DNA from: a virus
Lineage: Duplodnaviria > Caudoviricetes
Virus record (IMG/VR): IMGVR_UViG_3300030330_004701
Coordinates: 32,001-96,000 of that record
Length of the DNA: 64,000 nucleotides
Direction: 5' to 3' (one strand)
The translations under genes were made by a program, and so were the position numbers. Position 1 is the stretch's first letter; each line of letters starts with the position of its first letter. The notes beneath the pieces were generated by a model. That model saw nothing but the letters and a program-made list of their open reading frames with translations, ran no database searches and was not told the DNA's origin. Positions 31,939 through 50,880 of this stretch are shown here, piece by piece.

Positions 31939-32705
31939 GAAATCTCCAGTTCTATAAGTCTCTTTGACTTCGGAGGAAATTTGGTAGCCACTTGCTTTAC
32001 TACTGGCTCAACCATTTCCCAAAGTCTATTCTCAACACCCCTAGTAAAGCTGGGGCACAAATACTTAACTCTAATAACACAGTATCCATTTTTAATCATG
32101 ATACCGTTCTTAATTGCATCATGCTTGACATATTCTCGCAGATGCTTTTCACCAAATACGGGCATAAAATGTTGTGGCCCGTCTATTTCTATAATAGTAT
32201 CAATATCAGGAAGATACAAGTCCATTTCATATTTTTCTCCACTTATCAAGCCTTTTTTATGTAGCTCAACAGTGTAGCCTATATTCTTTAGGTTTTGAAG
32301 CAAACTTCTTTCTGCCTTAGATCCATCTCTAATTGTTTCCCTCAGAGCCTCACTGCCCTTTCTTTGTATCTCTTTTCTTTCAGATTCACTCAAGCTATCC
32401 CAATGCTTCTTGGCTAGTGCGCTACGTCGATTTCTCTCTTGTTCAGACATTGCATCCCAATGCTTTTCTAGCGAGCTGCTGATCTTGTCTTTGGCTTCTT
32501 CGCTTCTTTTCTTACCTTTTGTCGGATGTACAGCACTACCATTTTCAAGCGCCTGTTTCTGTGCTTGACTTTTAGTGCGTATTTCAACTCCGTTCGATAA
32601 CAATATTCTTCTAATTTTATTAGGGTAAGTATTATATCTTTCGGCAATAGCTTTGGTGCTTAACTTTTCTTCTACGTAAAGCTCTATGATTTTACTGGCG
32701 TCCAT
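31935..32705 (-). CDS. Homing-endonuclease-like protein (HTH + NUMOD3 + Vsr/DUF559-type nuclease)
   Basis: LSTKAIAERY HTH; KGKKRSEEAKDKIS NUMOD3-like repeat; MDLYLP...IEIDGPQHF nuclease motif. Confidence 0.7.
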   Translation of the reverse strand: MDASKIIELYVEEKLSTKAIAERYNTYPNKIRRILLSNGVEIRTKSQAQKQALENGSAVHPTKGKKRSEEAKDKISSSLEKHWDAMSEQERNRRSALAKKHWDSLSESERKEIQRKGSEALRETIRDGSKAERSLLQNLKNIGYTVELHKKGLISGEKYEMDLYLPDIDTIIEIDGPQHFMPVFGEKHLREYVKHDAIKNGIMIKNGYCVIRVKYLCPSFTRGVENRLWEMVEPVVKQVATKFPPKSKRLIELEIS

Positions 32706-33157
32706 AGTATCTCCTCTAATTGCTGCATATTCCAATTATCTACAATACCAGAGACTTCTCTGTTTGCATATTTTTCAATCAAGTCTTTGTGATACTCGCT
32801 TCTTGCGATTAACTTGATTTTTTCATCTCTCATTATAGACACAACATCTGTAAATTGCATGGGCTTTCTAAGCCACTCTAAGTCCCAGATATAGAAAAAC
32901 TTATCAGAACTGTTTTCTGTTTTCAAGATTAAATTTGCTGTCTCTACACTAGTAGCAACTGTACACCCATAGTAGGTAGCGTAATGAGAAATGTTCATTG
33001 TTGCAAAATGTGGTTTCACTACTGGTGGAGATAGGCTGTTGTAAAAGCAGACAGGAGAATACTTAGTATGTTTAGCTAGGCTATTAAACTCTTTTATTAG
33101 ATAAAAGCTTAATTGTGTTGGGCCTAAATTATCAACAACTGCCGCAATTCTATTCAT
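32684..33157 (-). CDS. Hypothetical protein, possibly a stand-alone GT-B N-terminal half
   Basis: VATSVETA, KFFYIWDLEW and LIARSEY resemble GT-B N-lobe elements. Confidence 0.4.
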   Translation of the reverse strand: MNRIAAVVDNLGPTQLSFYLIKEFNSLAKHTKYSPVCFYNSLSPPVVKPHFATMNISHYATYYGCTVATSVETANLILKTENSSDKFFYIWDLEWLRKPMQFTDVVSIMRDEKIKLIARSEYHKDLIEKYANREVSGIVDNWNMQQLEEILWTPVKS

Positions 33158-33845
33158 CTTTTGCTGTGCTCCTAAACTTACCCTGACCGCATATGTAAGG
33201 GTATATATGGTATACTTTTAATTCTGTCTTGTAAAAGGCGTAGTTAAGCTGCCAGTCAATAGGAACACAAAATGTCTCCATGTAGGGCAGTATCTTACTT
33301 ACACTCCGCTTATTATAAATTATTGAGGAGGTTGTATTTGTGGCGGGGTGAGCAGCTAGTATATATCCTTTTTGCCTGTCACCATGTATTTCCAGAGGAG
33401 TTATAATCCCATGATCAAACGCACCACCTAATAATATAACATCCCAATCATTCGGCGCCCTACTAATTATATCATCTATTCGTGCAGATGGCTCACTAAA
33501 ATGGCAGTCATCTTCTAAAAATAATGCAAATTCTATGTCTTGTTTTAGAAAGTCTTTGAAGGCATGTAGATGTTTTAAATTAAGAGATATTGAAGGAAGT
33601 CTCATTTTCTCATAGGTGTATGGAGACAGTCCTGCAAAACCGTGAGGTTGCCTAGATATCTCGCAAACCTCTTTATGAAAATCTGGATCATCATTGTATC
33701 TAAGGAGATCTTCTTGTGTCAAATCCTCCCTATCAAATTCTGTGACCAATTGAAATTCATTGATTCCTGCAGACGATAACTGGTCGAGAATAAACCCTCT
33801 CCTTTCACAGAGAGGGCTATAGTGCATTATATAAGTTTTATACAT
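33150..33845 (-). CDS. Glycosyltransferase, GT25-like
   Basis: YIMHY...ERR, SLNLKH, ALFLEDD, WDVILLG and PIDWQL motifs. Confidence 0.75.
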   Translation of the reverse strand: MYKTYIMHYSPLCERRGFILDQLSSAGINEFQLVTEFDREDLTQEDLLRYNDDPDFHKEVCEISRQPHGFAGLSPYTYEKMRLPSISLNLKHLHAFKDFLKQDIEFALFLEDDCHFSEPSARIDDIISRAPNDWDVILLGGAFDHGIITPLEIHGDRQKGYILAAHPATNTTSSIIYNKRSVSKILPYMETFCVPIDWQLNYAFYKTELKVYHIYPYICGQGKFRSTAKDE

Positions 33846-33846
33846 T

Positions 33847-34821
33847 TTATTTACTGTAGAAATCCTGCCAGTGTCTGACCATTTCTTCCATCATAGACTT
33901 GAATGTATATTCAGGCTCCCAGCCAAATGTTTCTCTGGTTTTTGTTGGATCGCCTTTAAGATATTTCAACTCTTCAGGGCGCATGAATCTAGGATCTTGT
34001 TCTACATAGTCTTTATAATCCATGTCCAAATACTCAAACACTACCTCGCATAGCTGACGAACTGAGTGAGTCTCTCCTGTAGCCACAACAAAGTCATCAG
34101 GAGTATCATGATTAATGATATCAATCATTGCTCTTGTGTAGTCTTTGGAGTGTCCCCAGTCTCTGTAGGAGTCCATGTTACCCAAGAATAATTTGTCTGT
34201 CATTCCTAAAGAAATTTGAACTGCAGTTTTAACTACTTTGTTTGTTACAAAATTAGAACCTCTTCTTGGCGATTCATGGTTGAACAAGATGCCATTAGAC
34301 GCATGTAACCCATAAGCATGTCTATAATGCCTAACCAAAGAGTATCCCATGAGCTTCGAGCAACCGTAAGGGCTAACTGGAGTCATTGGTGTTGTTTCTC
34401 TTTGGAATCCATCTTCATCGACACTATTGCCAAACATCTCAGACGAACTAGCCTGATAGAACCTTGCGCTTGGACAATAATTTTTGTATACTTCTAGTAG
34501 ATTGAGAACACCCTCTGCGTTAGTTTTAATGGTGAAGGATGGCACATCAGAACTAACTCTAACGTGACTCATTGCTCCTAAGTTAAAGATGTGAGTGGGA
34601 TTGCATTCCCTGACAATCCTCTCCAGCGAACACCAATCCATCAAGTCGCCATATCGTGTATTAACATGGTCTATGATGTGGTCTATTCGAGACTCTTGGT
34701 TCTCTGCAACAGATTGTCTACGAATAATTCCATAGACTTTATAATCTTGCTTTAAAAGGTGCTCTGCAAGATAGCTTCCATCTTGGCCAGAAATACCAGT
34801 TATTAGTGCTACTTTTCTCAT
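33847..34821 (-). CDS. gmd: GDP-mannose 4,6-dehydratase
   Basis: ALITGISGQDGSYLAE, SHVRVS, FYQASSSEMFG, PVSPYGCSK, GILFNHESPRRG, RDWGH. Confidence 0.97.
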   Translation of the reverse strand: MRKVALITGISGQDGSYLAEHLLKQDYKVYGIIRRQSVAENQESRIDHIIDHVNTRYGDLMDWCSLERIVRECNPTHIFNLGAMSHVRVSSDVPSFTIKTNAEGVLNLLEVYKNYCPSARFYQASSSEMFGNSVDEDGFQRETTPMTPVSPYGCSKLMGYSLVRHYRHAYGLHASNGILFNHESPRRGSNFVTNKVVKTAVQISLGMTDKLFLGNMDSYRDWGHSKDYTRAMIDIINHDTPDDFVVATGETHSVRQLCEVVFEYLDMDYKDYVEQDPRFMRPEELKYLKGDPTKTRETFGWEPEYTFKSMMEEMVRHWQDFYSK

Positions 34822-35411
34822 TTAAAAATCTCCATGTTTCTCAGGTCAGGCCAGTCTTCAATAACCCATTGTCTGGGCGGTGTTTCTATTGCTTTGGGTA
34901 GTTTTTCTAATCCCAAAGTTGCAGTTTCTATGGTCATGTAATAATGATAACCTTCACAGCTTATGTTTTGTTCTCGCCAAGGGATGAGAGGCTCTCTGCC
35001 ATCATGAACCATCCTCTTCAATTGTTCTGCAGATTCTTGACTATCCGTAAGTATCATACCTCCTCGCCCCAAACTTAAATGCTTTTGGAACTGGAAGCTT
35101 AGACACATAAAGCTACCAGATATATAACTATCTTTTTTCCACAATACAGCAGCATCGTACACCTTTTGACCGGACTCTCCAACGCCTACTTGGTAGTAGT
35201 CCTGCCAGTTTTCTTCTCTCCAAACTAATGGTAGTGATAACTTCCTAGCTAGGAATGGTATCGACGGGTAAGTCCTGTGCGGAGATTCAACGCTTTTGGC
35301 GTTTACATGCCTCAAACATAGTTCTACGCCATGAGTGCAGCAATCTACGGCAACGCCATAAGGGGCGCCAAAGAATTCAGCCACTTTCTTCTCAAGTAAT
35401 TCTACAGCCAT
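34818..35411 (-). CDS. Short DegT/DnrJ-family PLP-dependent sugar aminotransferase
   Basis: EKKVAEFFG..YGVAVDCCTHG, DAA, SFQFQKHLSLGRGGM (PLP Lys) and GYHYYM; only 197 aa. Confidence 0.8.
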   Translation of the reverse strand: MAVELLEKKVAEFFGAPYGVAVDCCTHGVELCLRHVNAKSVESPHRTYPSIPFLARKLSLPLVWREENWQDYYQVGVGESGQKVYDAAVLWKKDSYISGSFMCLSFQFQKHLSLGRGGMILTDSQESAEQLKRMVHDGREPLIPWREQNISCEGYHYYMTIETATLGLEKLPKAIETPPRQWVIEDWPDLRNMEIFK

Positions 35412-35413
35412 TC

Positions 35414-35968
35414 TTATTTTATTCCTTCTACATTCAAGCTGATCAATGTTCCATTGTCTTTGTCCATATGAGGTATATATGCCTGTGAATGGTCATCAAA
35501 TTCACTATGTTCAGTATCTCTCCAATCATAACGAGTGACATTTTGGATTCCTACAGATTCAAGAATGTTAGACAGTTCGTCAAAATCATATGTGGTTTTG
35601 TGGTAAATAGTCTGATCACCCATCTCCATCTTTCCATAGAGAGGTCCCAGAAAACTACTTAGCCCCACTTTCTTTATTGTGTTTTTATTCATTACATACA
35701 TGATAGCCATAGACTCAAAGTCTGGCACGGCTATTCTTAGCACTGCGCCTTTTTTTAGAACTCTAGTCCATTCACTTAAAATATCAACCACTTCTTCTCT
35801 GTCGAAATATTCTAAGACATGAGAAGCATATATCAAATCAACAGATTCATCTTCGTAAGGAAGTTTAGTTATATCATCGTACTGCAGATGTTCGTAGTCT
35901 CCACCATCAATATGTACCCAATCATCACCAAAGTTTCTCCACCCGCATCCTAAATGAAGCTTAATCAT
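35414..35968 (-). CDS. Class I SAM methyltransferase (Methyltransf_11-like)
   Basis: KLHLGCG, VDLIYASHVLEY, RVLKKGAVLRIAVPD. Confidence 0.85.
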   Translation of the reverse strand: MIKLHLGCGWRNFGDDWVHIDGGDYEHLQYDDITKLPYEDESVDLIYASHVLEYFDREEVVDILSEWTRVLKKGAVLRIAVPDFESMAIMYVMNKNTIKKVGLSSFLGPLYGKMEMGDQTIYHKTTYDFDELSNILESVGIQNVTRYDWRDTEHSEFDDHSQAYIPHMDKDNGTLISLNVEGIK

Positions 35969-36368
35969 GGAACACCACCTTGTCAGCATCTTTGCCAAAG
36001 TATGGGCCAGTTTTGAACTCATAGACTACAGTTCCATCTTCTAGACATTCATACTTATGACCACCCCAAAAACTAATAGTACAACCTCCAGCAGAAATTA
36101 CCGCTGGCTCATCCATTGGATTTTTGTTTTCATCATAATATGTAATCTTTATCTTGCCCTTCAGGACAACCCAAGCTTCCTGCGTAGTATCAGTAGTTCT
36201 CTCGCATGGGATGTGGACATGTGGATCAAACTGTTTACCATTATCCATGTTTATAACGGCACACTGTAGGTATTCTCCAGCATCCGTTGCATCAAATCTA
36301 CCTTCTTGATATTCATCAGCATTAAAGTAGCAGTGGTAAAGCTTGTCATCTTTGTATATTTTATGCAT
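35961..36368 (-). CDS. WbuC-like cupin
   Basis: PHVH...TQEAWVVLKG...GGH...YEFKTGPY cupin metal motif. Confidence 0.75.
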   Translation of the reverse strand: MHKIYKDDKLYHCYFNADEYQEGRFDATDAGEYLQCAVINMDNGKQFDPHVHIPCERTTDTTQEAWVVLKGKIKITYYDENKNPMDEPAVISAGGCTISFWGGHKYECLEDGTVVYEFKTGPYFGKDADKVVFHD

Positions 36369-36936
36369 TTAATAGTTCCTTATATAGTCTGATATCTTCT
36401 TGGTATAGATCTGCAACTATACTTGCAGTTTCATCTGTGTAGCAATCTCGAAAATGTTTATGGTTGCTTTTGTTAATAACGGGAACCTCTTCGAGTGTCT
36501 CGTCATATATAATGGAGTGTAGCTTTTTTGTCTCTTCTTCTAGATTCTCAAAGAGTCCTATATGGTCGAAGTATTCTCTCTTACCAATCCTGCGCATCAT
36601 TGGCATTACATGTTGTTGTTCTAGGTAGTGGTCTGGATTTTTATATGCTAATCTCAGCCATTCTTCAAAACTATTGTGCGTCATATCATATTTCAAAGCG
36701 TCTTCTGCATCTCCAGCGTGACACCCTCCAGCTTTGAGGTAATAAAAACAGCTAACAAGCCTATCAAAGGGGTTTCTAATAATAGTAAACGAATAGCCCT
36801 CTGGCTTAGACTCTACAAAGCCGTGACCAGATGTCAAACCAATATTACTATATAGGTGCTCCCACATTTTTCCACCAGTCTTAGGTATGTGTAGGAAAAA
36901 ATATTTATTATCGTTATGAATAAACTCTCCAGCCAT
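36361..36936 (-). CDS. Sulfotransferase (Sulfotransfer_2-like)
   Basis: FLHIPKTGG (5'-PSB) and IIRNPFDRLVS (3'-PB) PAPS-binding motifs. Confidence 0.85.
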   Translation of the reverse strand: MAGEFIHNDNKYFFLHIPKTGGKMWEHLYSNIGLTSGHGFVESKPEGYSFTIIRNPFDRLVSCFYYLKAGGCHAGDAEDALKYDMTHNSFEEWLRLAYKNPDHYLEQQHVMPMMRRIGKREYFDHIGLFENLEEETKKLHSIIYDETLEEVPVINKSNHKHFRDCYTDETASIVADLYQEDIRLYKELLNA

Positions 36937-37463
36937 TATGGTATCCTTATGACAAATTGACTTCCATTAATCTCCACTCCTAGTCCAGTAGCTTCTGTGA
37001 ACTCTTTGACGGCTCTCTTGGGACCTCCATTGGAGTATGGGTCGTGTTCATCATTATCGCCATAATCGTCACCGCAAAGAAAGCCGCCAGACTTCATTGA
37101 CTTATAGTAGTGCCATAAATCTTCGAGTACATTTTCATAACTGTGATTTCCATCAATATAAACCCAGTCAAAGTAATCCTCTGGAAAATCAACATCTACG
37201 GAAAAGCTCCTATGGATTTCTGTATTCTGAAAGTGATCAAACATACTAATTACATCATCGTAGATTTTATCCATTTGCTCTTGTCCACAACAATAAATTC
37301 TAAGATCTTCAGGATTGTCTACGGGAAAGTCTTGATGTAACCAAGGGTCTATGAGGTGCAGTTTGGATGGCTGACGTTGTAGTATATAGTGAGAAAACTC
37401 TCCCTTCCATACTCCTACTTCAGCACAAACATCACCGGGTTTTATTAAATGTAAATTTCTCAT
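36936..37463 (-). CDS. Class I SAM methyltransferase (Methyltransf_24-like)
   Basis: AEVGVWKGEFS, IDPW, FDWVYIDGNHSYE, GGFLCGDDY. Confidence 0.88.
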   Translation of the reverse strand: MRNLHLIKPGDVCAEVGVWKGEFSHYILQRQPSKLHLIDPWLHQDFPVDNPEDLRIYCCGQEQMDKIYDDVISMFDHFQNTEIHRSFSVDVDFPEDYFDWVYIDGNHSYENVLEDLWHYYKSMKSGGFLCGDDYGDNDEHDPYSNGGPKRAVKEFTEATGLGVEINGSQFVIRIP

Positions 37464-38356
37464 GCAAGTATCTTTCCTGTAAAAAAGTCTAATAATGATT
37501 CTGGTGTTGCGTGGTAGGGTACTTGCCCATCTGTAAAGACGGGCTGCTCCAAATAACTCAAGAGCTTTGATTCGTCAGATAACACTTCATGTATATAATT
37601 AACAGCCTCTTCATCAGACGAAAAATCGCTTATGTTAATAAATGCTTTTTTGTTGAAGTCTTCGCCTACGTTCTCTGGCCCCCAATATATTGGTAGGCAT
37701 CCTGCATAAAATGAGTGCAAGATTTTCTCACATACGTAACCCTGTCTATCATCGTTTTCAAAACATAAGTTTGACTTGAACTTAGAAATAAATTCTATCT
37801 TCTCTAGGTAGTCACTGTTGCCCGGCTTTTCAACCATTTCTGTTGTATTTCTTAGGAAGTCTCCACCATGAGTCACATCCATTTTTGAGGATATGTAAGG
37901 GTAAAAGTCTGCTCTCCTGCCAAGCGTTCCAGACGCTACTGAGCAACACAGTCTATCTCTATAAGATATCTGCCTATTAGATAGCTCGTCTATTGATATA
38001 TAGTATGTTGGCCCTCGATTAAGGTCATGCGCAGGAGCCCCATTCCAGTTTATCTGTGTAGACCAAAACGGAATCCTATAGTTTCTATCATCATCAAGAT
38101 TGCAACTGTTGAAAGAATAGTCACATTTACTATAGTCAGGTTCTCCTATTCTATTCATAGACTCTATAAACCAAGCTATAGTTATAGCCGTATCGTGTTT
38201 GGAATAAGTTTGCCCTTGATTTATAATAATATCTGGATTGTCATTTACAATCTCGACATTATACTTTTTACGCAAGGCAACGGTTATAATATTGTCGTTT
38301 ACGGGGAAGCCACCCCAAAAGTTATCAAATCGTATTCTTAGATTACTTGCAACCAC
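37460..38356 (-). CDS. GT10 alpha-1,3/4-fucosyltransferase-like protein
   Basis: KIEFISKFKSNLCFENDDRQGYVCEKILHSFYAGCLPIYWG matches the GT10 FENS..DY(V/I)TEK...PIYWG signature. Confidence 0.85.
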   Translation of the reverse strand: MVASNLRIRFDNFWGGFPVNDNIITVALRKKYNVEIVNDNPDIIINQGQTYSKHDTAITIAWFIESMNRIGEPDYSKCDYSFNSCNLDDDRNYRIPFWSTQINWNGAPAHDLNRGPTYYISIDELSNRQISYRDRLCCSVASGTLGRRADFYPYISSKMDVTHGGDFLRNTTEMVEKPGNSDYLEKIEFISKFKSNLCFENDDRQGYVCEKILHSFYAGCLPIYWGPENVGEDFNKKAFINISDFSSDEEAVNYIHEVLSDESKLLSYLEQPVFTDGQVPYHATPESLLDFFTGKILA

Positions 38357-39131
38357 AATCCTGTGTGTCCTTTATTAGATTTTCCCAATAGTCAAAAGAA
38401 AGCTTTTCCAAATTATACATAATACTAGTTGCGTCGTCTAGAAAATGCACAAGTTTTTGGTGGGTTACTTCTTCCCATTTGTCTACAAATAATATCGGCA
38501 GATCTGAAAGACATTTGTGTGTTAAGTGACTTTGTACAATTGGTATACAGCCCATATATAGCGCCTCCCATATCCTATGCGTATCTACACCATTACCTCG
38601 TGGGCAAAGACAGAAAGCGTACTTGGATAAGTTGGAAACATATTTATCAAACTGTGATCCATTAATTGACTGGAAAAAGTCTGCGTCAACCGCCTTTTTT
38701 TCGATAAGATTAACTAGGTCAGTTCTTGACTCATGCGTTACTGGATTAAATTGACCGAAAGCGCGGATCAATCTCTGTTCTTGTGCAGGGCAATTAAGTA
38801 TGATGTCTCTTTTGGTTGGATGCCACTGCGTATTTTCTAGTCCTATTGGTATAGGGAAAGTTCTACTAGATGCGGTGCATAGATTTTGAGCATACCAACA
38901 AATTAAGTTGGGAGGTAGAAATCTTTTGTTTAAATTTATTTCTGCATCCCCATTATGAGTTACCAGCCTGAATTTTTTATCGTTATTTTTTTCTATAAAA
39001 ACAAGCGCGCGCAAATAGTCATCTGACGCAGCATACATTGTAATCTCTTGTTTGTCCGGCATATCCTCTCCGAACTCAAAATCACAGATAGATCTAAACA
39101 TATCCCCATCAACAAACCTTACACTGCTCAT
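38343..39131 (-). CDS. Exostosin/GT47-like glycosyltransferase
   Basis: FCLCPRGNGVDTHRIWEALYMGCIPIV. Confidence 0.8.
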   Translation of the reverse strand: MSSVRFVDGDMFRSICDFEFGEDMPDKQEITMYAASDDYLRALVFIEKNNDKKFRLVTHNGDAEINLNKRFLPPNLICWYAQNLCTASSRTFPIPIGLENTQWHPTKRDIILNCPAQEQRLIRAFGQFNPVTHESRTDLVNLIEKKAVDADFFQSINGSQFDKYVSNLSKYAFCLCPRGNGVDTHRIWEALYMGCIPIVQSHLTHKCLSDLPILFVDKWEEVTHQKLVHFLDDATSIMYNLEKLSFDYWENLIKDTQDCGCK

Positions 39132-39946
39132 TGTAATTTCTTCCTCATATAGTATGCAAGCCCTTCCGGTGAGCAGAAATATTTGTACCAAGATTTTCCA
39201 GCTTCAGAATAATACTCCATTTCTTCTGGGTTCTGCAAAATCATATCTATAACATCTGGAAGATTAGTCCAGTTATTATCTACAGTAATTGTAGGCGCTA
39301 CATTATACATGGGTATTACAGGCATCTGTTGTGATACTATAACACATCCTGCCATAGCAGCCTCAAAAAACCGAAAACTCTCGAAGCTAGCTGATCCATT
39401 CGGAACTAAAGCTATTTTTGTATTGCTCATTACACTAGCGTAATCTTGTATAGGGCCTCCATTATTCCAGCCGTTATACCAAAGGACTTTACTTGCATGG
39501 CTTTTGCCTTGAAGATTATCCACAGCATTTTTGAAGGCAACCCTTGTGTAAGGATCAAACTGCCCCATCCAACACCAATCATACGTTCTTTCGTGAACAT
39601 TCACAGGTTCAGGATTAAACCCTTCTAAGGAGCATAAAGGAAGTGGGGTTACTTTGCTTTCAAACTGATGTAAAATTGAAGTAGGATTCTTCATATCGGC
39701 CATCGGTACATACTGCTTGAATATATGCGCGTAAGAATTGTCGTTGACTTCTACTGGAACGTTGTGGCTCTCATCAGATGTAGAAATGAGAACTTTAGGA
39801 TACTTTGTATCTGAAGGTTTCTCACCATCCCATGTTTGGATTATAAACGAGTAGTCTTGTTCTAGTGTGTTACACAGGATTTCTGCTGCCTGCTGATAAA
39901 CATAAGTATCAGGTTTGTCTTGCGCTAAGTTAATGATTTCTGACAT
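39128..39946 (-). CDS. Exostosin/GT47-like glycosyltransferase
   Basis: KIALVPNGSASFESFRFFEAAMAGCVIV. Confidence 0.7.
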   Translation of the reverse strand: MSEIINLAQDKPDTYVYQQAAEILCNTLEQDYSFIIQTWDGEKPSDTKYPKVLISTSDESHNVPVEVNDNSYAHIFKQYVPMADMKNPTSILHQFESKVTPLPLCSLEGFNPEPVNVHERTYDWCWMGQFDPYTRVAFKNAVDNLQGKSHASKVLWYNGWNNGGPIQDYASVMSNTKIALVPNGSASFESFRFFEAAMAGCVIVSQQMPVIPMYNVAPTITVDNNWTNLPDVIDMILQNPEEMEYYSEAGKSWYKYFCSPEGLAYYMRKKLQ

Positions 39947-40818
39947 TATACAAATCTTTCTAAGTTTTTACTATGTACATGAAGATTGAATATTGGAAAG
40001 CGCTCGCCGTCCACTCTTATTACATAAGGGCGGTCAGTGAATTCTGCATTAATCTCTTCTGCAATCATCGCAGAACCAATTATATGTTTTTGATCAATAA
40101 ACCCTGAGCCATGACCATTATTTGTGCCTCCTAAATACTGACCATATGAACCCGGATCAAATATATAATTATGGTCTTCATGAAAGTTAGGGATTGTTGG
40201 TAGCGGGCAAAACATATTATTTACATGTGCTACGTGTAGCAATGACATTTCGCTAACATGGTCAAAACCGAAGTTCTGGATTAACCATTGCTCTCCCTTT
40301 TCTAGCAACTGATTAAAAAAGAGGCACATGTGCCTTGTGTGTTGTGGTGTAGGAATATGAGCAAAAGCGAAAGTCACCTGATCTACAGACATCGGAGTTA
40401 GGCTGAGTAGAGGGTGTGTAGGCACCTCTCTGAGGTCGCCATAAACTAGAACATCATTCTCAAAATGAAACGCATCATAAATACGCTCTCTATTAAGATA
40501 CTCATCCAAATAGTAAAGGCGTTCGCAGGTTCTATGCCAGAAGAGTTCTGGACTTGGGTACGAGGTGTTAGGAGTTCCGTGTCTACGGAAGTTACAGACC
40601 TTATTGAATTCTTTAAGTACGTCGCCATCAGACAGCTCGTCTTGAGGAATCCAGTTAACACCAAATTCTTCAAATATAGGTTGGTCATCTTTGCAGATAA
40701 AATCAAACTCGACATCTGGATTGGTCTGCTTTGCCTTTTGGATTGAAAATCTGACGTAATCTGGCAAAGCCCCACCATCAGATATAAAAGTATTTACTAT
40801 TTTCATATTTAAGTCCAA
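39946..40818 (-). CDS. Putative GT-A glycosyltransferase
   Basis: LPDYV, FWHRTCERLYYL, HFENDVLVY, IFDPGSYGQYLGG and NLHVHSK; DxD-like END; within the island. Confidence 0.5.
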   Translation of the reverse strand: MDLNMKIVNTFISDGGALPDYVRFSIQKAKQTNPDVEFDFICKDDQPIFEEFGVNWIPQDELSDGDVLKEFNKVCNFRRHGTPNTSYPSPELFWHRTCERLYYLDEYLNRERIYDAFHFENDVLVYGDLREVPTHPLLSLTPMSVDQVTFAFAHIPTPQHTRHMCLFFNQLLEKGEQWLIQNFGFDHVSEMSLLHVAHVNNMFCPLPTIPNFHEDHNYIFDPGSYGQYLGGTNNGHGSGFIDQKHIIGSAMIAEEINAEFTDRPYVIRVDGERFPIFNLHVHSKNLERFV

Positions 40819-43356: not shown

Positions 43357-44392
43357 TTATCTCTCTCCTAGTTCTATCCCAGCCTTCAACTATGTTTGCA
43401 GCTTCTTGCTCGTACCCAAGATAGTTTAATATTTGTGATATCCTATGAAAGTTAGTATGATTTTCTAGCAAGAACTTTTGTCCTTGAGATGCTAGCTGCC
43501 GACGCTCATTTTCGTTGGCCAAATAGTAGTCAATCTTTTCCCTAAAATCTTGAGGGCCTTCTGCGAAGATCACGCCATTGCCTTCAAATATTTTTGCGAT
43601 AGATGTTATATTATCGGATATGCAAAAGCCTCCTGCACACAAAATCTTGAAACACCTTTCATTTATATCAAACCCATAATGATGCGCATGTGGCTCGCTT
43701 AGGTTAGGGCATATCTTTGCGGACGCAAAAAGGTCTTTTAACTTGTGGTCTTGTAAAAAACCGCAATACTGATTAATATGCCAAGGCTGATTACCAAAAA
43801 CTTTGATATTATATCTATCTACTGGATGACAAAGAGGTGTAAGAAATTGGTCTATGATGATACCTTTATGTGGCCAGTAACCTCCAACGAAGCCGATATC
43901 GCAAGCTAGGGAATCGTCATACTGGCCGCCAAAATATTCTTGTACATCGCCGCACATTATTACTGATTTTGCGTCTATACCAATCTTGCTGTAATTGGAG
44001 TGTGTCTGATCTACTGCTTCTTGATCGTAATGGATATGTACAAAATCTGGTTTTCCAGTTTCTTCTTTTAATTTTTTAAGAAGCTCAATTTCTTGTTCAG
44101 TGGCATGAAGGACATTTAATGTCGGGTCTTTTTGGAAGTCTCCCCAATCTCCCGCACGAAGTCCTATCTTTAGGTGTGGCCTCTCGTATATACATTTGAC
44201 TAGATCTGATGTCAAATTGTAAGACTGTCCTAAAAATACATCTGGTTCAAACAGGTCGAAGGCATCAAAAGCGGACATACTCTTGCAATCCCAAAGCTGG
44301 GCCTGTATGCCTACCGCATTAAAAGCTCGCAACCAAGATAGCCTCTGGAAATAATGAGCGTGTACACCATCGCTAGATATTAAAATTTTCAT
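43349..44392 (-). CDS. CgeB-like GT-B glycosyltransferase
   Basis: DIGFVGG, AKICPNL, INERCFKILCAGGFCISD, IDYYL...ER...HT...R. Confidence 0.75.
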   Translation of the reverse strand: MKILISSDGVHAHYFQRLSWLRAFNAVGIQAQLWDCKSMSAFDAFDLFEPDVFLGQSYNLTSDLVKCIYERPHLKIGLRAGDWGDFQKDPTLNVLHATEQEIELLKKLKEETGKPDFVHIHYDQEAVDQTHSNYSKIGIDAKSVIMCGDVQEYFGGQYDDSLACDIGFVGGYWPHKGIIIDQFLTPLCHPVDRYNIKVFGNQPWHINQYCGFLQDHKLKDLFASAKICPNLSEPHAHHYGFDINERCFKILCAGGFCISDNITSIAKIFEGNGVIFAEGPQDFREKIDYYLANENERRQLASQGQKFLLENHTNFHRISQILNYLGYEQEAANIVEGWDRTRREINA

Positions 44393-45080
44393 TCTTCAAG
44401 TCTTTCATACAGTCTATTTCTAATATTGATATTTTGTCTGGTTCAACAACCCTGATGTTTCCACCCTTATTTATTATAAGATTGAGCACTTCAAAAGTCA
44501 ACATGTTTTTTATATCTTCTGAATGTTTTATAAAAGCCGACCTAAGTAGCTTTAACTCCCTGCCACATAAGTAAATTATCTGGCACCATTTAAGATCTAA
44601 GCCATGAGAAAATATCGTAGCTTTATTTTTTACTTTGGTTACTCCTACTTCCCTATCTTGCATTGCTTGGTTTGAAGCAAGAACAAAAGACTTTCCATAA
44701 TCTAAATTCTGTAGCAACTCTTGACCAAAATAAAGATCTCCATGAAAAAACAGAATACTGTCAGCATCTGAATTATTCAAGATCAATCGCATTGTTTCTG
44801 CAGAGCCAGTAAATTCATATAGTTGATTTTCGATATACCTAGCGTTAAAACCTGTTTTCTTTATAATTTTGTTTGCACCTACGCCAACACCTACAATTAT
44901 CTCAGGCTCCGAGAAAACATTTCTAATAACTGATATCTGATGCTCAAGCAGCGTTTTATTGCCGACCTTGAGTAGAGAACGGGGCTCATTAGATTTTATT
45001 CTATTTCCAATTCCAGCAGAGAGTATACCTACTGTTGTAGTGATAGAATCTCTTTTAATTTTTTGAATGAATCTGTTCAT
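44373..45080 (-). CDS. Nucleotidyltransferase (LicC/NTP_transferase-like)
   Basis: ILSAGIGNRIKSNEPRSLL, HGDL, EIDCMKDL. Confidence 0.75.
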   Translation of the reverse strand: MNRFIQKIKRDSITTTVGILSAGIGNRIKSNEPRSLLKVGNKTLLEHQISVIRNVFSEPEIIVGVGVGANKIIKKTGFNARYIENQLYEFTGSAETMRLILNNSDADSILFFHGDLYFGQELLQNLDYGKSFVLASNQAMQDREVGVTKVKNKATIFSHGLDLKWCQIIYLCGRELKLLRSAFIKHSEDIKNMLTFEVLNLIINKGGNIRVVEPDKISILEIDCMKDLKNENFNI

Positions 45081-45891
45081 TACGCTTTCTTATTTTATCT
45101 GCGTTTTGTTGGAATATTTCTGGGGTCATCTTCATGGATTGGTTCAGGCCCGTCTCTCTTACATAAGATAGCGGTTCGGCAATGTGTGAAATCATACATA
45201 CATTTGAAAGCCTAAGCCATAAATCATAGTCTTCTATGCATCCTATAAAGCCCTGACTTCCGGGACCATGTAGGTTGCTATCATATATCTCTTTGTTGTC
45301 TAATAATATTTTTGATAGACATCTCTTTTTGATTAATCCAGCACTGTGTACTATGCACTGTCTTTCTAGCTCAAATTTGGAATATGGGTATTTGTATTCA
45401 TATTTTTGGTAGTCATTGTATCCATATGTTTTATGTATAATATAGTCTGAATATGTAACGCCTATTTCATCATGCTCAATCAGCTTTTGTACCTGTTTAG
45501 AAACTTTACTTGGATGATACAAATCATCCGCATCAAGAATGGCAAAGACATCTGCCCATTCCCAAGCTTCCCAAATTGCTACGTTCCTAGCGGTGCTAGC
45601 GCCCGAATTTTCAATATGGTAGCACCATAGGTTCATGTCACTACACTGAAATAATTTCATTTGACCTGTGTAATATGGCTCATTCACCTCATGAGAGTCT
45701 GTTATGGAGGATATGCTCTCTGAAGCGTAGCTTAGTAGTTTATCATAAGACCCATCCGAAGAACCATCGTCAATTACGTAAACACGCATTTGACCTTCGT
45801 AGTCCTGCTTAAGGGCACTATCTATAGCATCTAGAACAAACTCACCATAATTGTAATTGGTTATTACAACAGCTACATTAGGCAGATTCAT
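45055..45891 (-). CDS. GT2 glycosyltransferase
   Basis: VITNYNYG, IDDGSSDG, GASTARN, ILDADD, EDYDLWLRL. Confidence 0.92.
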   Translation of the reverse strand: MNLPNVAVVITNYNYGEFVLDAIDSALKQDYEGQMRVYVIDDGSSDGSYDKLLSYASESISSITDSHEVNEPYYTGQMKLFQCSDMNLWCYHIENSGASTARNVAIWEAWEWADVFAILDADDLYHPSKVSKQVQKLIEHDEIGVTYSDYIIHKTYGYNDYQKYEYKYPYSKFELERQCIVHSAGLIKKRCLSKILLDNKEIYDSNLHGPGSQGFIGCIEDYDLWLRLSNVCMISHIAEPLSYVRETGLNQSMKMTPEIFQQNADKIRKRNEQIHSKN

Positions 45892-46690
45892 CTATGAATT
45901 CCTTCCAAGTTATAATAGTGTCTGGATCTGATGTGTTCATGCCCTCGACTTTTTCGACAAAGCTAAGGGTCATATCTTCTCCCGTGTCTTTGTGTTGCAG
46001 CTTTCTGCTACCGTCTAAAAACTTATATATGGCTGTCTGAAATATCATACCATTCAAATCATCATACGGCTTAACCAATACAAGTCTCTTCATATCTACA
46101 TTTATTCTGTCATGAATCTTCTGTAAAAGATCGAGCCTAACATTCTCTCCGCTGGTCGTGACATAAGCCCAACCATTCTTAGCGTGCCTGAAGGCTTCAT
46201 CCAGCAGGAAGTCATTTTTGCTATCGACTAATGTCTGCACAATGTGAAACTCTGTTTCTTCAAAGTCAAAGTTCTTTCTGAGTATTTCGTGCAGTTGCTC
46301 GTTGTATTCAACTCTAGAATTAATTAGTGCTATATATCGAGCTTGACCAAAGCTCTGTTCTTTAATATCTTTTAGTGTTACCTTGAGACGATCAATCATC
46401 CCTTCTTCGCTGTCTAGAAAAATAAAGAAGCCAAGTCTTGGGCAGACCTCTCTCATAACAGTATTCACCATGTCCTGCTTTTCTTCATCAGATAAGATAA
46501 TCCTCCACTCTTCAGGCCTGTAGGTGTTACAAAATCTATTGAATGTATAATGGTGTTTTTCGCCGTCCATCAATAAATCATTTTTCGGATTAAGTTTTTC
46601 TGCTCTATTTAACTTACAGCCAGTTTGTGTGTCTTTTGTATATTCCGCAAACAGGCAGCCTTTACAGCTAGTTTGAACTTGCATTTGCAA
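45878..46690 (-). CDS. Hypothetical protein with an N-terminal Cys cluster
   Basis: SCKGCLF...GC...FC; overlaps both neighbouring genes. Confidence 0.55.
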   Translation of the reverse strand: MQMQVQTSCKGCLFAEYTKDTQTGCKLNRAEKLNPKNDLLMDGEKHHYTFNRFCNTYRPEEWRIILSDEEKQDMVNTVMREVCPRLGFFIFLDSEEGMIDRLKVTLKDIKEQSFGQARYIALINSRVEYNEQLHEILRKNFDFEETEFHIVQTLVDSKNDFLLDEAFRHAKNGWAYVTTSGENVRLDLLQKIHDRINVDMKRLVLVKPYDDLNGMIFQTAIYKFLDGSRKLQHKDTGEDMTLSFVEKVEGMNTSDPDTIITWKEFIDESA

Positions 46691-47111
46691 CCCTCCTTGA
46701 TGTTATAATAGCTTGCATAGTTTCATTATCTAATGTTTTTTGTGTGATTTGCAAGTTACTACCTTTTACTATATCAGCAATAGTTTCGATATTTAAGACG
46801 CAACCAACAGTTGGGCAGTCTTCAAATAGAATTGAATTTATATCTGACAGAGCCATGCCTGTTTTATTATAAGTATAGGACAGGATGTCAATGTCTTTTT
46901 GGTAGATAACTAATTTTGAATTAAGTCTCATTTTAGAGACTATCTTATTTAAAATATATTCTAGAGACTCAAAATTAAAAGCAGACAAGAAGCTGTCCAC
47001 AATTATTTCTGTCGCCTCATTATCATCCACAACAGAGTCTATGGTGGAGAAGTCGCTTACCCATACGTGACTTTTGCTTTCTGGGTCGGTGTGTGAAAGT
47101 ATAATTTTCAT
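46668..47111 (-). CDS. Degenerate methyltransferase-fold protein
   Basis: Central part aligns by eye with 35414..35968 but lacks the GxG SAM motif. Confidence 0.4.
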   Translation of the reverse strand: MKIILSHTDPESKSHVWVSDFSTIDSVVDDNEATEIIVDSFLSAFNFESLEYILNKIVSKMRLNSKLVIYQKDIDILSYTYNKTGMALSDINSILFEDCPTVGCVLNIETIADIVKGSNLQITQKTLDNETMQAIITSRRVANASSN

Positions 47112-48130
47112 TATTTTTTGTAATCCCTTATAACTTTGAAAAACAAGTCGTTCCAGTTTTTAGTAAATCTGTCAAGACTGTAATTATCTTTAATTGTATT
47201 CCTTGCATTTTCTCCAAGCCTTCTGGCTTCTTGAGGGTTGTCAAGAAGAAATTGACAAGATGCGCGTAGCTCATCTGCGGTATCCGCAAGTAACCCATTC
47301 TCACCATGCTGGATTATTTCTGGAATCATACAATTATTAGTGCTGACGATTGCGCAACCACAAGCCATTGCTTCCATTAGAACGGTTGGTACGGGCGAGT
47401 GTATGGAGGTATTCAAAAACACTGATGCGCTCTTATATGCATCTCTTAGATCTTCAATACTATCTGCAGGCTCAGAGAATCCGGGGCTACTGCCAAGAAC
47501 CTTTACTGGCAACATACCTTCATCTGTTCTGATTATTTCATTCCAAAGATTCCAGCCACAGCACCAGTCTCTATTTGGCCACTCGTTGACAACAGAAAGT
47601 AGCACGTTTTCTCTCTGCAGTTCTTCGCCAGTTTGCCAGAAGTCATAATCCATACCATGCTCAACAAAGCTGGTGTTTTCTCCCTGCTTCTTTCCCCAAG
47701 CATCCATATTGTACTCAGAAATGAAACTGTCATGATCAACAGAAATAGAATTGAAAGCTTGGACCTGCTGTTCGACATCAAATCTAATATCCGGCAATAC
47801 ATGAGTATGCCTGATAATTGGTATATTGTACATAGCTTGTAAGTTCTTGGAAAACTGCAGTCTCTCACAACTCGTATGAGAAAGTATAAGATCAAATTGC
47901 AAGTGCCAAGGTATTATCTTTATTTCTTGATAATTATCTGGTATCTCTCCATAGTCTTTATTCCATAGCTTGCCTTGTGCTACAGAATAAAAATTGTGTC
48001 CAGTTTTGCACAAATTTTGCTCATACCTTTCATGCGTACAGAAAGTTAATATGTTTAACTTGTCTGTATCTTTTAAGGTTGCGCGACGAACCATAGATTT
48101 TATAGATACTTGGTTTGCTTGACTACTCAT
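47111..48130 (-). CDS. GT4 glycosyltransferase
   Basis: VFLNTS...PTVLMEAMACGCAIVS...EIIQHGENGLL. Confidence 0.9.
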   Translation of the reverse strand: MSSQANQVSIKSMVRRATLKDTDKLNILTFCTHERYEQNLCKTGHNFYSVAQGKLWNKDYGEIPDNYQEIKIIPWHLQFDLILSHTSCERLQFSKNLQAMYNIPIIRHTHVLPDIRFDVEQQVQAFNSISVDHDSFISEYNMDAWGKKQGENTSFVEHGMDYDFWQTGEELQRENVLLSVVNEWPNRDWCCGWNLWNEIIRTDEGMLPVKVLGSSPGFSEPADSIEDLRDAYKSASVFLNTSIHSPVPTVLMEAMACGCAIVSTNNCMIPEIIQHGENGLLADTADELRASCQFLLDNPQEARRLGENARNTIKDNYSLDRFTKNWNDLFFKVIRDYKK

Positions 48131-49229
48131 AAAGTAACTCCTTCAACCGCCTTCCAACTCTCATGTTACTATAATTCTCTGCCTTAAGCTGGGCATCTGC
48201 ACAAATTAAATCATATTTTTCTTTATCGTTCTTATATGTTTCGTAAGCGACTCTCATGGCTGAGGCCAAATGTTCTATACTGGGTTCCATCCATTTTGTG
48301 TGAGATGTATACATATAGTCTAAAGAATCGGTGGCGTTATAGCAGGACTTTGCTTCAGACTCTACTTTCCATCCATGACAAAAGTCATCCATTCCTGTAT
48401 TGCCAGTGTAAATAACGGGCATGCCAATTGCCATAGATTCAAGGGCCGGTATGCACCAAGCTTCGCCAAAGCTAGGCATTACAAAACATTGACACTTTGA
48501 CATTAAAGACAGTAGGTGTCTATCTTCTAAGTGACCCGAAATAGCTATCTCTTTTTTGTACTTTGTTCTTATTTTCAGTTTTGACTTAACCGAATCAGAA
48601 AGCTGCTTAAATGCATTCAAAGTATCGTCACTGGATAAGCCTGACTTGCTTATTTTTAACATTAAGTTTACGGGTTCTGACGGATGAAATTCTGAATGAA
48701 AAGCCCTTAGTAAGCCTTCAATGTTTTTTCTATTTATCATTTCCCCCACAAAACAAAAGTTGAAACATCCATCGAATTCTGCAGCGCTGGCACAGTCTTC
48801 TATGTTCTTGTATTTTGCCAGATCTAGAGAGTGAGGCGCAACTTTTATGGGCACCTTTACCCCGCTTTTATGGCAAGCTTCAACCATTTGATTATTCGGA
48901 ACCCAAACTTCGTCCATCATATTTATGTGTTTCTGCCACATTGTTTCTGTAAAAGTAACAGTCTCAGTCACAAAGAAGCCAATGTTTTTTAGGTTGGAAT
49001 TATAACTATATAAAGGTGGTAACGTATGGTAGATACACGCATCGCAGTTAGCGTCACTTTTGCTTTCTAGTTCTGTAACTGTAGGATGTATATCCGCATG
49101 AGAATTATTAAAAGTTATAGCCCTTGGTACTACATCTACTCCAGCAGAGTGCAAAGCCAAAATATTATTTAGCGAAGCATAGCCCCAACCAGTTCTATCT
49201 TTATAGTTACCGATATAAAGTGTTTTCAT
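48123..49229 (-). CDS. GT4 glycosyltransferase
   Basis: TGWG, DEVWVP, RKNI, FVMPSFGEAWCIPALESMAIGMPVI. Confidence 0.9.
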   Translation of the reverse strand: MKTLYIGNYKDRTGWGYASLNNILALHSAGVDVVPRAITFNNSHADIHPTVTELESKSDANCDACIYHTLPPLYSYNSNLKNIGFFVTETVTFTETMWQKHINMMDEVWVPNNQMVEACHKSGVKVPIKVAPHSLDLAKYKNIEDCASAAEFDGCFNFCFVGEMINRKNIEGLLRAFHSEFHPSEPVNLMLKISKSGLSSDDTLNAFKQLSDSVKSKLKIRTKYKKEIAISGHLEDRHLLSLMSKCQCFVMPSFGEAWCIPALESMAIGMPVIYTGNTGMDDFCHGWKVESEAKSCYNATDSLDYMYTSHTKWMEPSIEHLASAMRVAYETYKNDKEKYDLICADAQLKAENYSNMRVGRRLKELLYE

Positions 49230-50880
49230 TTTTTAGCCTTTGTGTTCTGATTTTTTCCCATTCATTATGGGTGTGTCTCATTTTTGCCATGTATTCATAT
49301 GCTTGTTCAACATTGAAAGAAGCCCAAGACCTGATATCATTATTAGTATGTGATTCATTAAAATACCAGTCTACATTCGTATTTACGACAGTACATTTAT
49401 ACATCAAGTCCTTGAGCGTTCTTTTCCATTGGTAGTTCCCTATCCACTCAGGCTTCCTCAAAACTGAATCAAACAGGAAGTTGACCTGATCTTTCACAGT
49501 TAATCCATCCGGCATTTTAGGAGCAGGATCAAACAACCTTGGCGGAGAGTACCATGTCTCCGATGGGTCTTTTACGGGAGTTGAAGCATAGTAGTTCGCC
49601 CAAATCTCAGCAGTCTTGTCCCAATTGTATCTCTGTAAAGTTTTTTGTCTCATGCCAAAACCTAGCTGTTTGAGCTTTTCTTTGCGCATACCATATAGCT
49701 CAACAAATTTCAGTAGAGTAAAGTCGTTGTTGGGAATTGCTCTCTTGCATCCAGTTTCGCATTCTGTTTGGAGCGTCAAAAGAGGAATCTTAATTGCCCC
49801 AATATTGTCTCCAACAGAGTCCATTGCTGAGTATGAAACTGTCATAATAGGAACTCCAGACTGACTAGCTTCTAGCTGGGGCATTCCAAAACCTTCACTA
49901 TTTGCATACTGGACATAAACATCGAAAAGGTTATATACTTGTGCCAAATCCTCTTCTTCAATTTTGTTATTCACTCCAACAAGTTCGCTTTTAAACGAAT
50001 TGCATTGTCGGCAATGATTAAACGTGTCCTTGAAAAAGCACGGTTCAATATGCCCACAGTTTTTACATTTATAAGTAAACAACACTCTGTTTGTCAGGTC
50101 ATACTCTTGTAAAAGCTCTGGAATATCCCATCCAACATCTGGATAATATGTGTGACAGTACAAGAAGGCGTTTGAGGCTTTGGTAGTATCTAGAAACTCT
50201 CTAAAAGTTTTGAATAGATCTGGGTACAACTTACGTCTCTGGTTGCGCATTACTGTACCAAATATGAAAGAGTCTGCTGTCAGACCCAGAGATTCTTTAT
50301 GTGCTTCTTTATCTGGTACAGGAGAAAAATTTTGACTTGCGCAAGGAGATGCCACATCAATAAAGTTCAAATCTCTGCATTGATTTAGTAAAACATCTCT
50401 GCCGAATTCGGAATATGCAAACACTGCATCCGCAGTAGCGAAGGTGTCCAACCATTGTTTGTTTTGTGGGAATGCATCTACTGTAGGCATGATAGTCCAG
50501 CTGTAGAAGTCTCTATAGGTAGATCTTTGCTGAAATTCAAACATCCACCAATCCCTAATGTCCATCACGAAATCAGGCTTGAAGTCAAGCAAGACATGAT
50601 TAAAAGTATACTCGCCAAATTCATAAGTGGGAGATGATTTATACTCATTCCACTCAGGCGTGTTTCTTTCTGGTTGATTGCCGTAAATCTTCCAACCTTT
50701 AGCATTTTTCTTAACGGACTCATCACTAGCATAGCAAGCTAACTCTGCAACCTCAAACCGAGGGTCTGCGTGTAATCTAGTTAGTAGCTCTTTTGTGTAA
50801 ACAGAATATCCTGTTGGTAGGTAATGAGCTTCTGTACAAAAAAGTATTCTTTTAGGTCTCATATCTTTGTATCTTTCCAA
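49207..50880 (-). CDS. GT4 glycosyltransferase with an inserted Zn ribbon
   Basis: TGYS, MRNQRRK, YNLFDVYVQYANSEGFGMPQLEASQSGVP; CKNC...CRQC insertion. Confidence 0.88.
   Translation of the reverse strand: MERYKDMRPKRILFCTEAHYLPTGYSVYTKELLTRLHADPRFEVAELACYASDESVKKNAKGWKIYGNQPERNTPEWNEYKSSPTYEFGEYTFNHVLLDFKPDFVMDIRDWWMFEFQQRSTYRDFYSWTIMPTVDAFPQNKQWLDTFATADAVFAYSEFGRDVLLNQCRDLNFIDVASPCASQNFSPVPDKEAHKESLGLTADSFIFGTVMRNQRRKLYPDLFKTFREFLDTTKASNAFLYCHTYYPDVGWDIPELLQEYDLTNRVLFTYKCKNCGHIEPCFFKDTFNHCRQCNSFKSELVGVNNKIEEEDLAQVYNLFDVYVQYANSEGFGMPQLEASQSGVPIMTVSYSAMDSVGDNIGAIKIPLLTLQTECETGCKRAIPNNDFTLLKFVELYGMRKEKLKQLGFGMRQKTLQRYNWDKTAEIWANYYASTPVKDPSETWYSPPRLFDPAPKMPDGLTVKDQVNFLFDSVLRKPEWIGNYQWKRTLKDLMYKCTVVNTNVDWYFNESHTNNDIRSWASFNVEQAYEYMAKMRHTHNEWEKIRTQRLKNENTLYR

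Follow-up and report, generated by a model that had tools for sequence, protein, structure and literature searches.

In mycobacteriophages, as Freeman et al. reportedly described in 2023, glycosyltransferases (GTs) glycosylate capsid and tail-tube subunits in the cytoplasm, with a proposed shielding role; the system is said to comprise one to few GTs encoded beside structural genes, and acceptors with C-terminal extensions. Chlorovirus and Megavirinae virions are glycosylated by soluble virus-encoded GTs, GDP-mannose 4,6-dehydratase (GMD), GMER and methyltransferases (PMC9614988, PMC10117803). Among cyanomyoviruses, the 24 'LPS' (lipopolysaccharide) genes of P-SSM2 have been in print since 2005 (PMC1079782), and for S-SCSM2R 22 cell-wall genes are reported, 13 of them GTs, a number that may be the highest in any marine phage (PMC12801897). 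Here we analyse a glycan gene island at positions 32684-50880, minus strand, of a 64,000-nucleotide stretch ('the window'), which represents bases 32001-96000 of the 144,965-bp IMG/VR record IMGVR_UViG_3300030330_004701 (estimated completeness 94%). We tentatively propose that this phage encodes a soluble pathway that builds a glycan, most likely on virion proteins, without a lipid carrier.

The island shares with the chlorovirus (PBCV-1, NY-2A) and Megavirinae systems a virus-encoded GMD and GMER/Fcl, several mostly soluble GTs and glycan methyltransferases. The Megavirinae clusters, of 6-33 genes, are clade-specific in content (PMC9614988, PMC10117803), and so is the island, with 96 families in its variable part across relatives. 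Unlike the giant viruses, which have eukaryotic hosts and glycans chemically determined on capsid or fibrils, the phage island is known from genes alone; it also differs in having a sulfotransferase, a single coupled operon and a sharp boundary between core and cassettes. The cyanomyovirus clusters (P-SSM2, S-SCSM1, S-SCSM2R) resemble it in belonging to lytic marine phages and in having at least 13 GTs, about 22-24 sugar genes and no reported export genes. However, their occurrence is sporadic (P-SSM2 but not P-SSM4), they are dispersed along the genome, and they belong to T4-like myoviruses, whereas the core of the island is present in every relative seen and one gmd gene is fixed in the packaging operon. 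Compared with the mycobacteriophage system, the island encodes 10 or more GTs together with enzymes for donor synthesis and tailoring, and the capsid protein lacks such an extension. With bacterial O-antigen and capsule loci it shares sugar-nucleotide genes, GT4, GT2 and GT25 enzymes, tailoring enzymes and a conserved frame around a hypervariable, exchanged centre; unlike them, it lies in a phage and has no priming transferase, flippase, polymerase, ligase or ABC exporter. An earlier note on this DNA had called the island far larger than characterised phage systems, which is true of those characterised experimentally, but cyanomyovirus clusters of similar size have been published (PMC1079782, PMC12801897).

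Layout and enzymes of the glycan island

The genes show that the record represents a true tailed phage: the plus strand codes for terminase, portal, major head protein and a tape measure of 2829 amino acids (aa), and the minus strand for replication genes, among them an exonuclease and a split DnaE. The island takes up about 1/8 of the genome. It is filled by 23 translationally coupled open reading frames (ORFs), and at their 22 junctions (longest ORFs) we counted 19 overlaps, one abutment and two gaps of 1-2 nt; two long overlaps (-64 and -62 nt) may reflect over-extended starts. The tightly coupled run of sugar genes of about 18 kb described in the earlier note is therefore real, and the contiguity and overlap of its genes hold, with the count corrected from 22 to 23. 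Coupling begins one gene upstream of g01, at a sigma-70-region-2 gene, and extends past g23 through d1-d3 to a terminator-like hairpin at 30810-30781. The island is convergent with the end of the tail operon and abuts it, its GTs lying on the replication-side strand. Its G+C content (0.37-0.40) is similar to that of the remaining window. Promoter-like sites are not enriched within it (52 found versus 61.3 expected), and we claim no internal promoter.

The first gene of the run and the ten genes that form the core (see below) are as follows.

50852..51439, minus strand: sigma-70 region-2 protein (PF04542, 3.3e-10), overlapping the g01 start by 29 nt; first in the coupled run
49207..50880, minus strand: g01, 557-aa GT4 (GT-B) with a four-cysteine (Cys4) insertion and a C-terminal helical extension (PF00534, 1.2e-6)
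48123..49229, minus strand: g02, GT4 (PF00534, 1.9e-12)
47111..48130, minus strand: g03, GT4 (PF00534, 2e-19)
46668..47111, minus strand: g04, 147-aa conserved protein with 43 orthologues
45878..46690, minus strand: g05, N-terminal Cys4 beta-module plus GT-A-fold GT (AF2 model, pLDDT 87.7)
45055..45891, minus strand: g06, GT2 (PF00535, 5.7e-17)
44373..45080, minus strand: g07, MobA/GlmU-N-like sugar-phosphate nucleotidyltransferase (PF12804, 1.4e-8)
43349..44392, minus strand: g08, CgeB-like GT, Glyco_trans_1_2 (PF13524, 3e-24)
42400..43356, minus strand: g09, GDP-L-fucose synthase-like (Fcl/GMER) short-chain dehydrogenase/reductase (SDR) (PF01370, 1.5e-56)
41529..42425, minus strand: g10, clade-specific and probably GT-A-like, with an invariant DD after a beta-strand; last core gene

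The AF2 model of g01 (pLDDT 85.5; 62 orthologues at 41-87% identity) has as its top PDB fold match the chlorovirus NY-2A protein B736L (3oy2; E 2.8e-18, TMt 0.80, sequence identity about 15%). At the profile level the top PDB matches are Gtf1 (3.9e-5), which we take to be a GT4-type enzyme glycosylating serine-rich adhesins, and B736L (7.5e-5), both of them weak leads, and a viral fold library returned generic GT4 proteins from uncultured phages and giant viruses. The four cysteines of its insertion, which sits within the C-terminal Rossmann domain, are invariant (C272/C275/C290/C293), as are C9, C12, C25 and C54 of g05. No Pfam match and no significant PDB sequence-profile match was found for g05. 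In the ESM Atlas it fell into viral clusters of its own clade only, plus a GT2 lead (0.92, 134 shared features) that was later backed by its GT-A fold, with Foldseek PDB matches to PcManGT, TarS and SpsA (E 4e-6 to 1e-5). g01 and g05 thus each have an invariant four-cysteine module, and the last gene of the operon, d3, also encodes a zinc ribbon. Pfam, NCBIfam and PDB-profile searches gave no match for g04 or g10; the 426 homologues of g10 are all marine metagenome proteins, with PF00535 on one of the 120 listed, and its hhalign comparison with g05 is weak (probability 5.8%). NCBIfam matches of g07 are to GlmU-type N-domains (2e-10 and weaker), all far under the cut-offs.

The remaining genes of the island make up the variable region and its closing gene.

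40809..41528, minus strand: g11, DUF6492 (PF20102, 2.6e-8), at the start of the variable region; in 4/11 genomes, G000 included
39946..40818, minus strand: g12, unmatched protein (no Pfam or NCBIfam family match)
39128..39946, minus strand: g13, CgeB-like GT, Glyco_trans_1_2 (PF13524, 4.4e-6)
38343..39191, minus strand: g14, GT47/RXYLT1-C-like GT (PF03016, 2.1e-8, 34.3 bits versus cut-off 33.4; PF24785, 3.9e-8)
37460..38356, minus strand: g15, GT10 alpha-1,3-fucosyltransferase-like (PF00852, 3.6e-13; FucT_N, 3.4e-9)
36936..37463, minus strand: g16, S-adenosylmethionine (SAM) methyltransferase, Methyltransf_24 (PF13578, 1.7e-11), with weak similarity to sugar O-methyltransferases
36361..36936, minus strand: g17, carbohydrate-type sulfotransferase, Sulfotransfer_2 (PF03567, 1.4e-13)
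35961..36368, minus strand: g18, WbuC-family cupin (TIGR04366, 5.5e-11; 42.5 bits versus cut-off 42)
35414..36022, minus strand: g19, class I SAM methyltransferase (PF08241, 3.1e-10)
34818..35411, minus strand: g20, 197-aa DegT-like mini-domain that keeps the SF..K lysine motif (PF01041, 9.2e-14)
33847..34821, minus strand: g21, GDP-mannose 4,6-dehydratase (PF16363, 2.7e-110), 44% identical to gmd2
33150..33845, minus strand: g22, weakly GT25-like (PF01755, 7.7e-4; 19.8 bits versus cut-off 24)
32684..33157, minus strand: g23, conserved 157-aa protein that ends the variable region in 11/11 genomes

Eight GTs reach Pfam cut-offs, two more are assigned by fold or weak profile and up to three are candidates, and we predict at least 10 soluble glycosyltransferases in this phage. 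All three steps of the GDP-L-fucose pathway are encoded: Gmd (g21 and gmd2, the latter outside the window), Fcl-like (g09) and fucosyltransferase (g15). Since g09, which matches NCBIfam GDPFucSynFcl over its full length (1.2e-90), stays below the equivalog cut-off (304 versus 500 bits), its exact product, fucose or another 6-deoxyhexose, is assigned by similarity; this qualifies the fcl of the earlier note, whose three GT4, GT2, GT10, gmd, sulfotransferase, methyltransferase, cupin and nucleotidyltransferase genes were all matched by profile searches. Other assignments fared less well. Of two supposed GT47-like genes Pfam supports only g14. The GT25 similarity of g22 is weak, with GT25 matches of up to 4.7e-9 in three variable-region proteins of relatives. 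The proposed aminotransferase, g20, covers only positions 163-237 of the PF01041 profile, so that its identity as such is doubtful; it corresponds to the C-terminal 195 residues of a 452-454-aa FkbM plus DegT-like fusion in two relatives, and the stand-alone form is under constraint (pN 0.19 versus pS 0.78). Finally, of three further GT-A-like genes, g05 is confirmed by its fold and g10 is only probable, whereas g11 is a DUF6492 protein and g12 is unmatched. No significant PDB-profile match was found for g23, and its hhalign probability against g01 is 0.1%.

Core genes and the variable region

With a fragment of the upstream polymerase as query we collected 79 related viral contigs (45-98% identity). 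g01 lies at the same place in all 50 contigs that continue for 2.8 kb or more downstream of this gene, and by tblastn all eight core genes tested are present in 35 of the 38 loci with at least 9.6 kb, the other three missing only g09. For ten long relatives we rebuilt the whole interval from the polymerase to the last tail gene, so that 11 genomes could be compared. In 11/11 the genes g01-g09/g10 keep the same order, followed by 3-22 variable genes and then by g23-d1-d2-d3, and the interval spans 16-31 kb. The ten-gene core is thus a vertically inherited hallmark of the clade. The variable middle is of a different nature: we sorted its 134 proteins into 96 families (at least 40% identity), 76 of which occur in a single genome, and most pairwise Jaccard indices of gene content are 0. 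The contents are nevertheless of one kind. In a Pfam census of 116 of the 122 variable-region proteins from the ten relatives (six that spanned locus joins were excluded), all of the 25 most frequent among 72 matched families are glycan enzymes; they include FkbM and other methyltransferases, RXYLT1-C/GT47, SDR dehydratases and epimerases, DegT, cupins, sulfotransferases, GT2, GT10, GT25, HAD and DUF6492.

One relative (G003) with 79% identity in the polymerase has g13-g22 at 62-95% but core genes g04, g05 and g10 at only 39-44% identity, and another that is no more distant (G004) shares no variable genes. By these comparisons, the post-core genes are a cassette region exchanged between lineages. 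In the close pair G000/G001, synonymous divergence (dS) is saturated in most core genes versus 0.11-0.55 in the polymerase, d1-d3 and the tail flanks. Wherever dS is unsaturated, the ratio of nonsynonymous to synonymous divergence (dN/dS) is 0.02-0.14, indicating purifying selection; because of this selection and of synteny across many independent assemblies, chance is not an issue. The comparison of a conserved core with a variable middle that the earlier note had proposed therefore gave a positive answer in 11 long genomes.

The same data bear on the possibility that the island is a piece of bacterial DNA wrongly joined to phage sequence. Its gene content is like that of bacterial polysaccharide loci. 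However, the same locus lies between the same phage genes in 11/11 long contigs from different metagenomes, and this synteny refutes the assembly chimera with bacterial DNA against which the earlier note had warned. Moreover, the G+C content matches that of the window, the closest cellular Gmd is only about 52% identical, and independent DNA runs yielded contigs spanning the island and its flanks (for example, a 40,975-nt contig over 31501-40401). We consider contamination or misassembly hardly conceivable.

Where the glycan may be attached

The proposed mechanism is a cytoplasmic, phage-autonomous assembly line that would need no lipid carrier. Inside the infected cell, the core enzymes would attach sugars directly to a macromolecular acceptor, for which virion proteins (one or more) are the likeliest candidates, to give a conserved inner oligosaccharide. 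The cassette enzymes would extend it by a lineage-specific outer part, predicted in this genome to carry fucose, O-methyl and sulfate groups, so that surface 'serotype' would differ among related phages. A virion acceptor is favoured by analogy with the chlorovirus and Megavirinae systems. The Cys4/zinc modules may be docking modules for a macromolecular acceptor.

The nature of the enzymes is consistent with such a pathway. Taking a 19-residue Kyte-Doolittle mean of at least 1.6 as a hydrophobic segment, we found no membrane segments in g01-g23 (highest mean 1.36), as the earlier note had anticipated for the island GTs. Across the 184 ORFs of the genome the maximum is four hydrophobic segments, in the tape measure, followed by three in a 157-aa ORF, and in the islands of the 11 genomes every coding-strand ORF has at most one. 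Searches for the Wzx-type flippase family PF01943 and for the priming transferase PF02397 (Bac_transf), each with a positive control, were negative in 5/5 related records; WecA-type priming enzymes are also covered, because there is no polytopic ORF. That no flippase, polymerase, exporter or priming transferase was recognised thus holds for the rest of the genome as well as for the island, and the notion of a soluble, phage-borne cytoplasmic pathway is supported, the pathway being self-contained for GDP-fucose.

The strongest, still indirect, link of the pathway to virion assembly is the placement of a second GDP-mannose 4,6-dehydratase gene, gmd2 (4.6e-120), outside the window at genome positions 18798-19844. 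It belongs to the late operon, the start of which (genome 17502-21203) encodes a second sigma-70-region-2 protein, a helix-turn-helix (HTH)/coiled-coil protein, gmd2, a small ORF, an ERCC4 nuclease and a ClpP-like protease, with terminase and portal following. gmd2 lies upstream of the terminase in 39/39 relatives with at least 3.5 kb of upstream sequence. Since gmd2 is fixed in the head operon, provision of the core Fcl-like enzyme with GDP-4-keto-6-deoxymannose is a constant trait of the clade, tied to morphogenesis genes. The ORF upstream of gmd2 resembles an HTH and coiled-coil, TerS-like protein rather than a sugar enzyme; in the ESM Atlas it falls in viral clusters of its own clade only.

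The same enzymes might instead remodel the host envelope, by extending a glycan on a host polyprenyl-phosphate primer that machinery of the host (either an ABC transporter or Wzx, together with a ligase) would export, for example to block adsorption of progeny or competitors. In ABC-transporter-dependent O-polysaccharide pathways all elongating enzymes are cytoplasmic, and the GT4 and methyltransferase sets of the island resemble such pathways. Conserved flanks around a variable centre are likewise the layout of O-antigen and capsule loci, and envelope modification is the explanation published for the cyanomyovirus clusters (PMC1079782, PMC12801897). On the other hand, neither the island nor the genome encodes a priming transferase, flippase, polymerase or polytopic protein. 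Cyanophage clusters occur sporadically, whereas every relative seen has inherited the core as it would a replication gene; the head/packaging operon has a fixed gmd, and devoting 12-20% of a lytic genome to a surface change that is only transient would be costly. We found no integrase of the tyrosine or serine recombinase type, so the phage is probably strictly lytic; this argues against lysogenic surface conversion, which from the gene content seems unlikely. Envelope remodelling as a whole is possible, if doubtful.

Another intracellular acceptor would be a non-virion phage or host protein, a small molecule or a free cytoplasmic methylated polysaccharide, possibly serving to block host defence or to sequester metabolites. 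Every enzyme being soluble agrees with this, as does the lack of a tie between the island and any specific structural gene, and the GT4 fold neighbours of g01 include small-molecule enzymes and a methylmannose-polysaccharide mannosyltransferase. Yet hypervariable, laterally exchanged outer cassettes better fit a product under selection from outside, and we know of no precedent at such a size. We regard an acceptor of this kind as improbable.

DNA is a further candidate, since phage GTs are classically DNA glucosyltransferases and Pyle et al. in 2024 reportedly described diverse phage DNA glycans; here the enzymes would glycosylate modified bases of the phage to evade restriction. Hypermodification of this kind would fit the position of the island at the end of the replication-gene operon, where it is coupled with the Vsr/DUF559-like nuclease-type gene d1, and the Cys4 modules on two core GTs. 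However, searches with positive controls detected neither a ThyA-family hydroxymethylase (PF00303) nor a C5 DNA methylase (PF00145) in the 94%-complete genome, which argues against DNA glycosylation; a Tet/JBP search (PF12851) had no match, but its control was silent too, which makes it uninformative. To our knowledge, at least 10 GTs combined with sulfation, methylation and fucosylation are not known for DNA. The gene content thus makes DNA an unlikely acceptor, and hypermodification to evade restriction very improbable.

Expression data are consistent with transcription of the island in the sea. Two metatranscriptome runs, from a sample in which the DNA of this phage is also present, gave contigs over 29/30 and 21/30 bins of 31501-51500, and 36 of the 42 contigs placed in the first run are at least 99% identical. 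These RNA data are assembled contigs, the depth of which cannot rank genes or reveal timing. In run X17 no contig covers bin 39505-40171, which is not evidence of silence. In the same run, a contig over d1-d2 (31159-32735) has a depth of 51, versus 3-15 for contigs of the island.

Several points weigh against a glycan made autonomously on virion proteins. The major capsid protein has a serine plus threonine fraction of 0.10 and an ordinary C-terminus, and none of the structural ORFs ends in a Ser/Thr-rich tail such as mycobacteriophage acceptors have. The island shares its strand with the replication genes and lies outside the structural operon. The fold match of g01 to B736L is barely ahead of those to many bacterial GT4 enzymes, and the acceptor of B736L itself is not established (PMC9614988). 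The host could provide the lipid carrier, the priming transferase and the exporter. The RNA contigs may include DNA carry-over, with timing unreadable, and the attachment point of the chain cannot be read from sequence.

The phage clade, its possible host and wider meaning

The phage belongs to an abundant, uncultured, marine and very large clade. A terminase search found at least 599 related stretches, and no cultured relative was found in searches of 50,697 phage records. In these, megablast with the island gave no DNA match, tblastn with the terminase reached at most 25-27% identity (Bacillus and Microcystis phages), and tblastn with g01 gave three weak matches at 21-23% identity, all in Synechococcus siphoviruses. 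PHROGs returned no family for nine of ten structural and flanking proteins.

As to the host, the best matches of g21 against one genome per species are 52% and 50% identical (metagenome-assembled genomes of Phycisphaerae and Planctomycetota), and 30 of the 80 cellular loci listed, counted by titles, come from the Planctomycetota-Verrucomicrobiota group. This is a weak hint, from sequence similarity, at Planctomycetota as the host group. Because the closest cellular Gmd is only about 52% identical, g21 is not a recent capture. Planctomycetes specialise in binding sulfated algal polysaccharides. Given such a probable host, it is tempting to speculate that virions carry a self-made hypervariable coat, equivalent in phages to the O-antigen serotypes of bacteria, with a 'fucoidan-like' outer chain (sulfated, methylated and containing fucose), which would act as bait for the polysaccharide-capture apparatus of the host and not just as a shield. 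We regard this as a long shot.

Beyond g23, the coupled run and its surroundings contain the following features.

31935..32735, minus strand: d1, NUMOD3 plus Vsr/DUF559-like nuclease-type protein (weak Pfam matches; invariant E..D...E.DG.QH block)
31159..31938, minus strand: d2, highly conserved protein (63% mean column identity across 11 genomes)
30830..31171, minus strand: d3, zinc-ribbon protein (weak Zn-ribbon matches), final gene before the terminator
30781..30810, minus strand: terminator-like hairpin closing the coupled run (13-bp stem plus T-run)
29902..30792, minus strand: d4, FkbM methyltransferase (PF05050, 4.1e-15), in only 3/11 genomes, G000 included

The best PDB-profile match of d1 is AbaSI (E 0.18, not significant), and d1 is probably unrelated to the glycan though it lies in the same coupled run. 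A PDB profile search with d2 gave no match. d4 stands alone between two facing terminator-like hairpins (29878-29903 and 30781-30810), where the tail and island operons converge. Directly 3' of the tape measure gene is an ORF of 3098 aa (window 11916-21212) with no Pfam or PHROG match, and the next three ORFs of the tail region (491, 1234 and 678 aa) are likewise without one. Elsewhere in the genome ARAGORN located a tmRNA gene (genome about 125449-125789, tag VEENFALAA), tRNA-Arg(tct) and tRNA-Glu(ttc). In the 153.7-kb record of one relative (G005), the g23-d1 segment near the end recurs at the start (positions 1-806); IMG/VR classes this record as linear without end repeats, and it may be circularly permuted or misjoined.

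In the open-access literature searched, we found no paper on this phage clade or on a sulfated, fucosylated phage glycan island. Against that literature, what appears new is the single coupled operon with a fixed ten-gene core and exchangeable cassettes, its fixation across a very large uncultured clade with gmd in the packaging operon, and a predicted chemistry that combines fucose with methyl groups and sulfate. If virions do carry the chain, tailed phages would become, alongside the giant viruses, self-sufficient makers of complex glycans without a lipid carrier. If the target is instead the host envelope or DNA, the investment would be unusually large and equally new. The soluble fucosyl-, methyl- and sulfotransferases might be put to use in glycan synthesis, and the split between core and cassettes gives a testable design. 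Should the chain indeed sit on the virion, an abundant clade of ocean phages would have exchangeable surface 'serotypes', with consequences for the ways in which virions in the sea escape or take advantage of adsorption, grazing and recognition by hosts.

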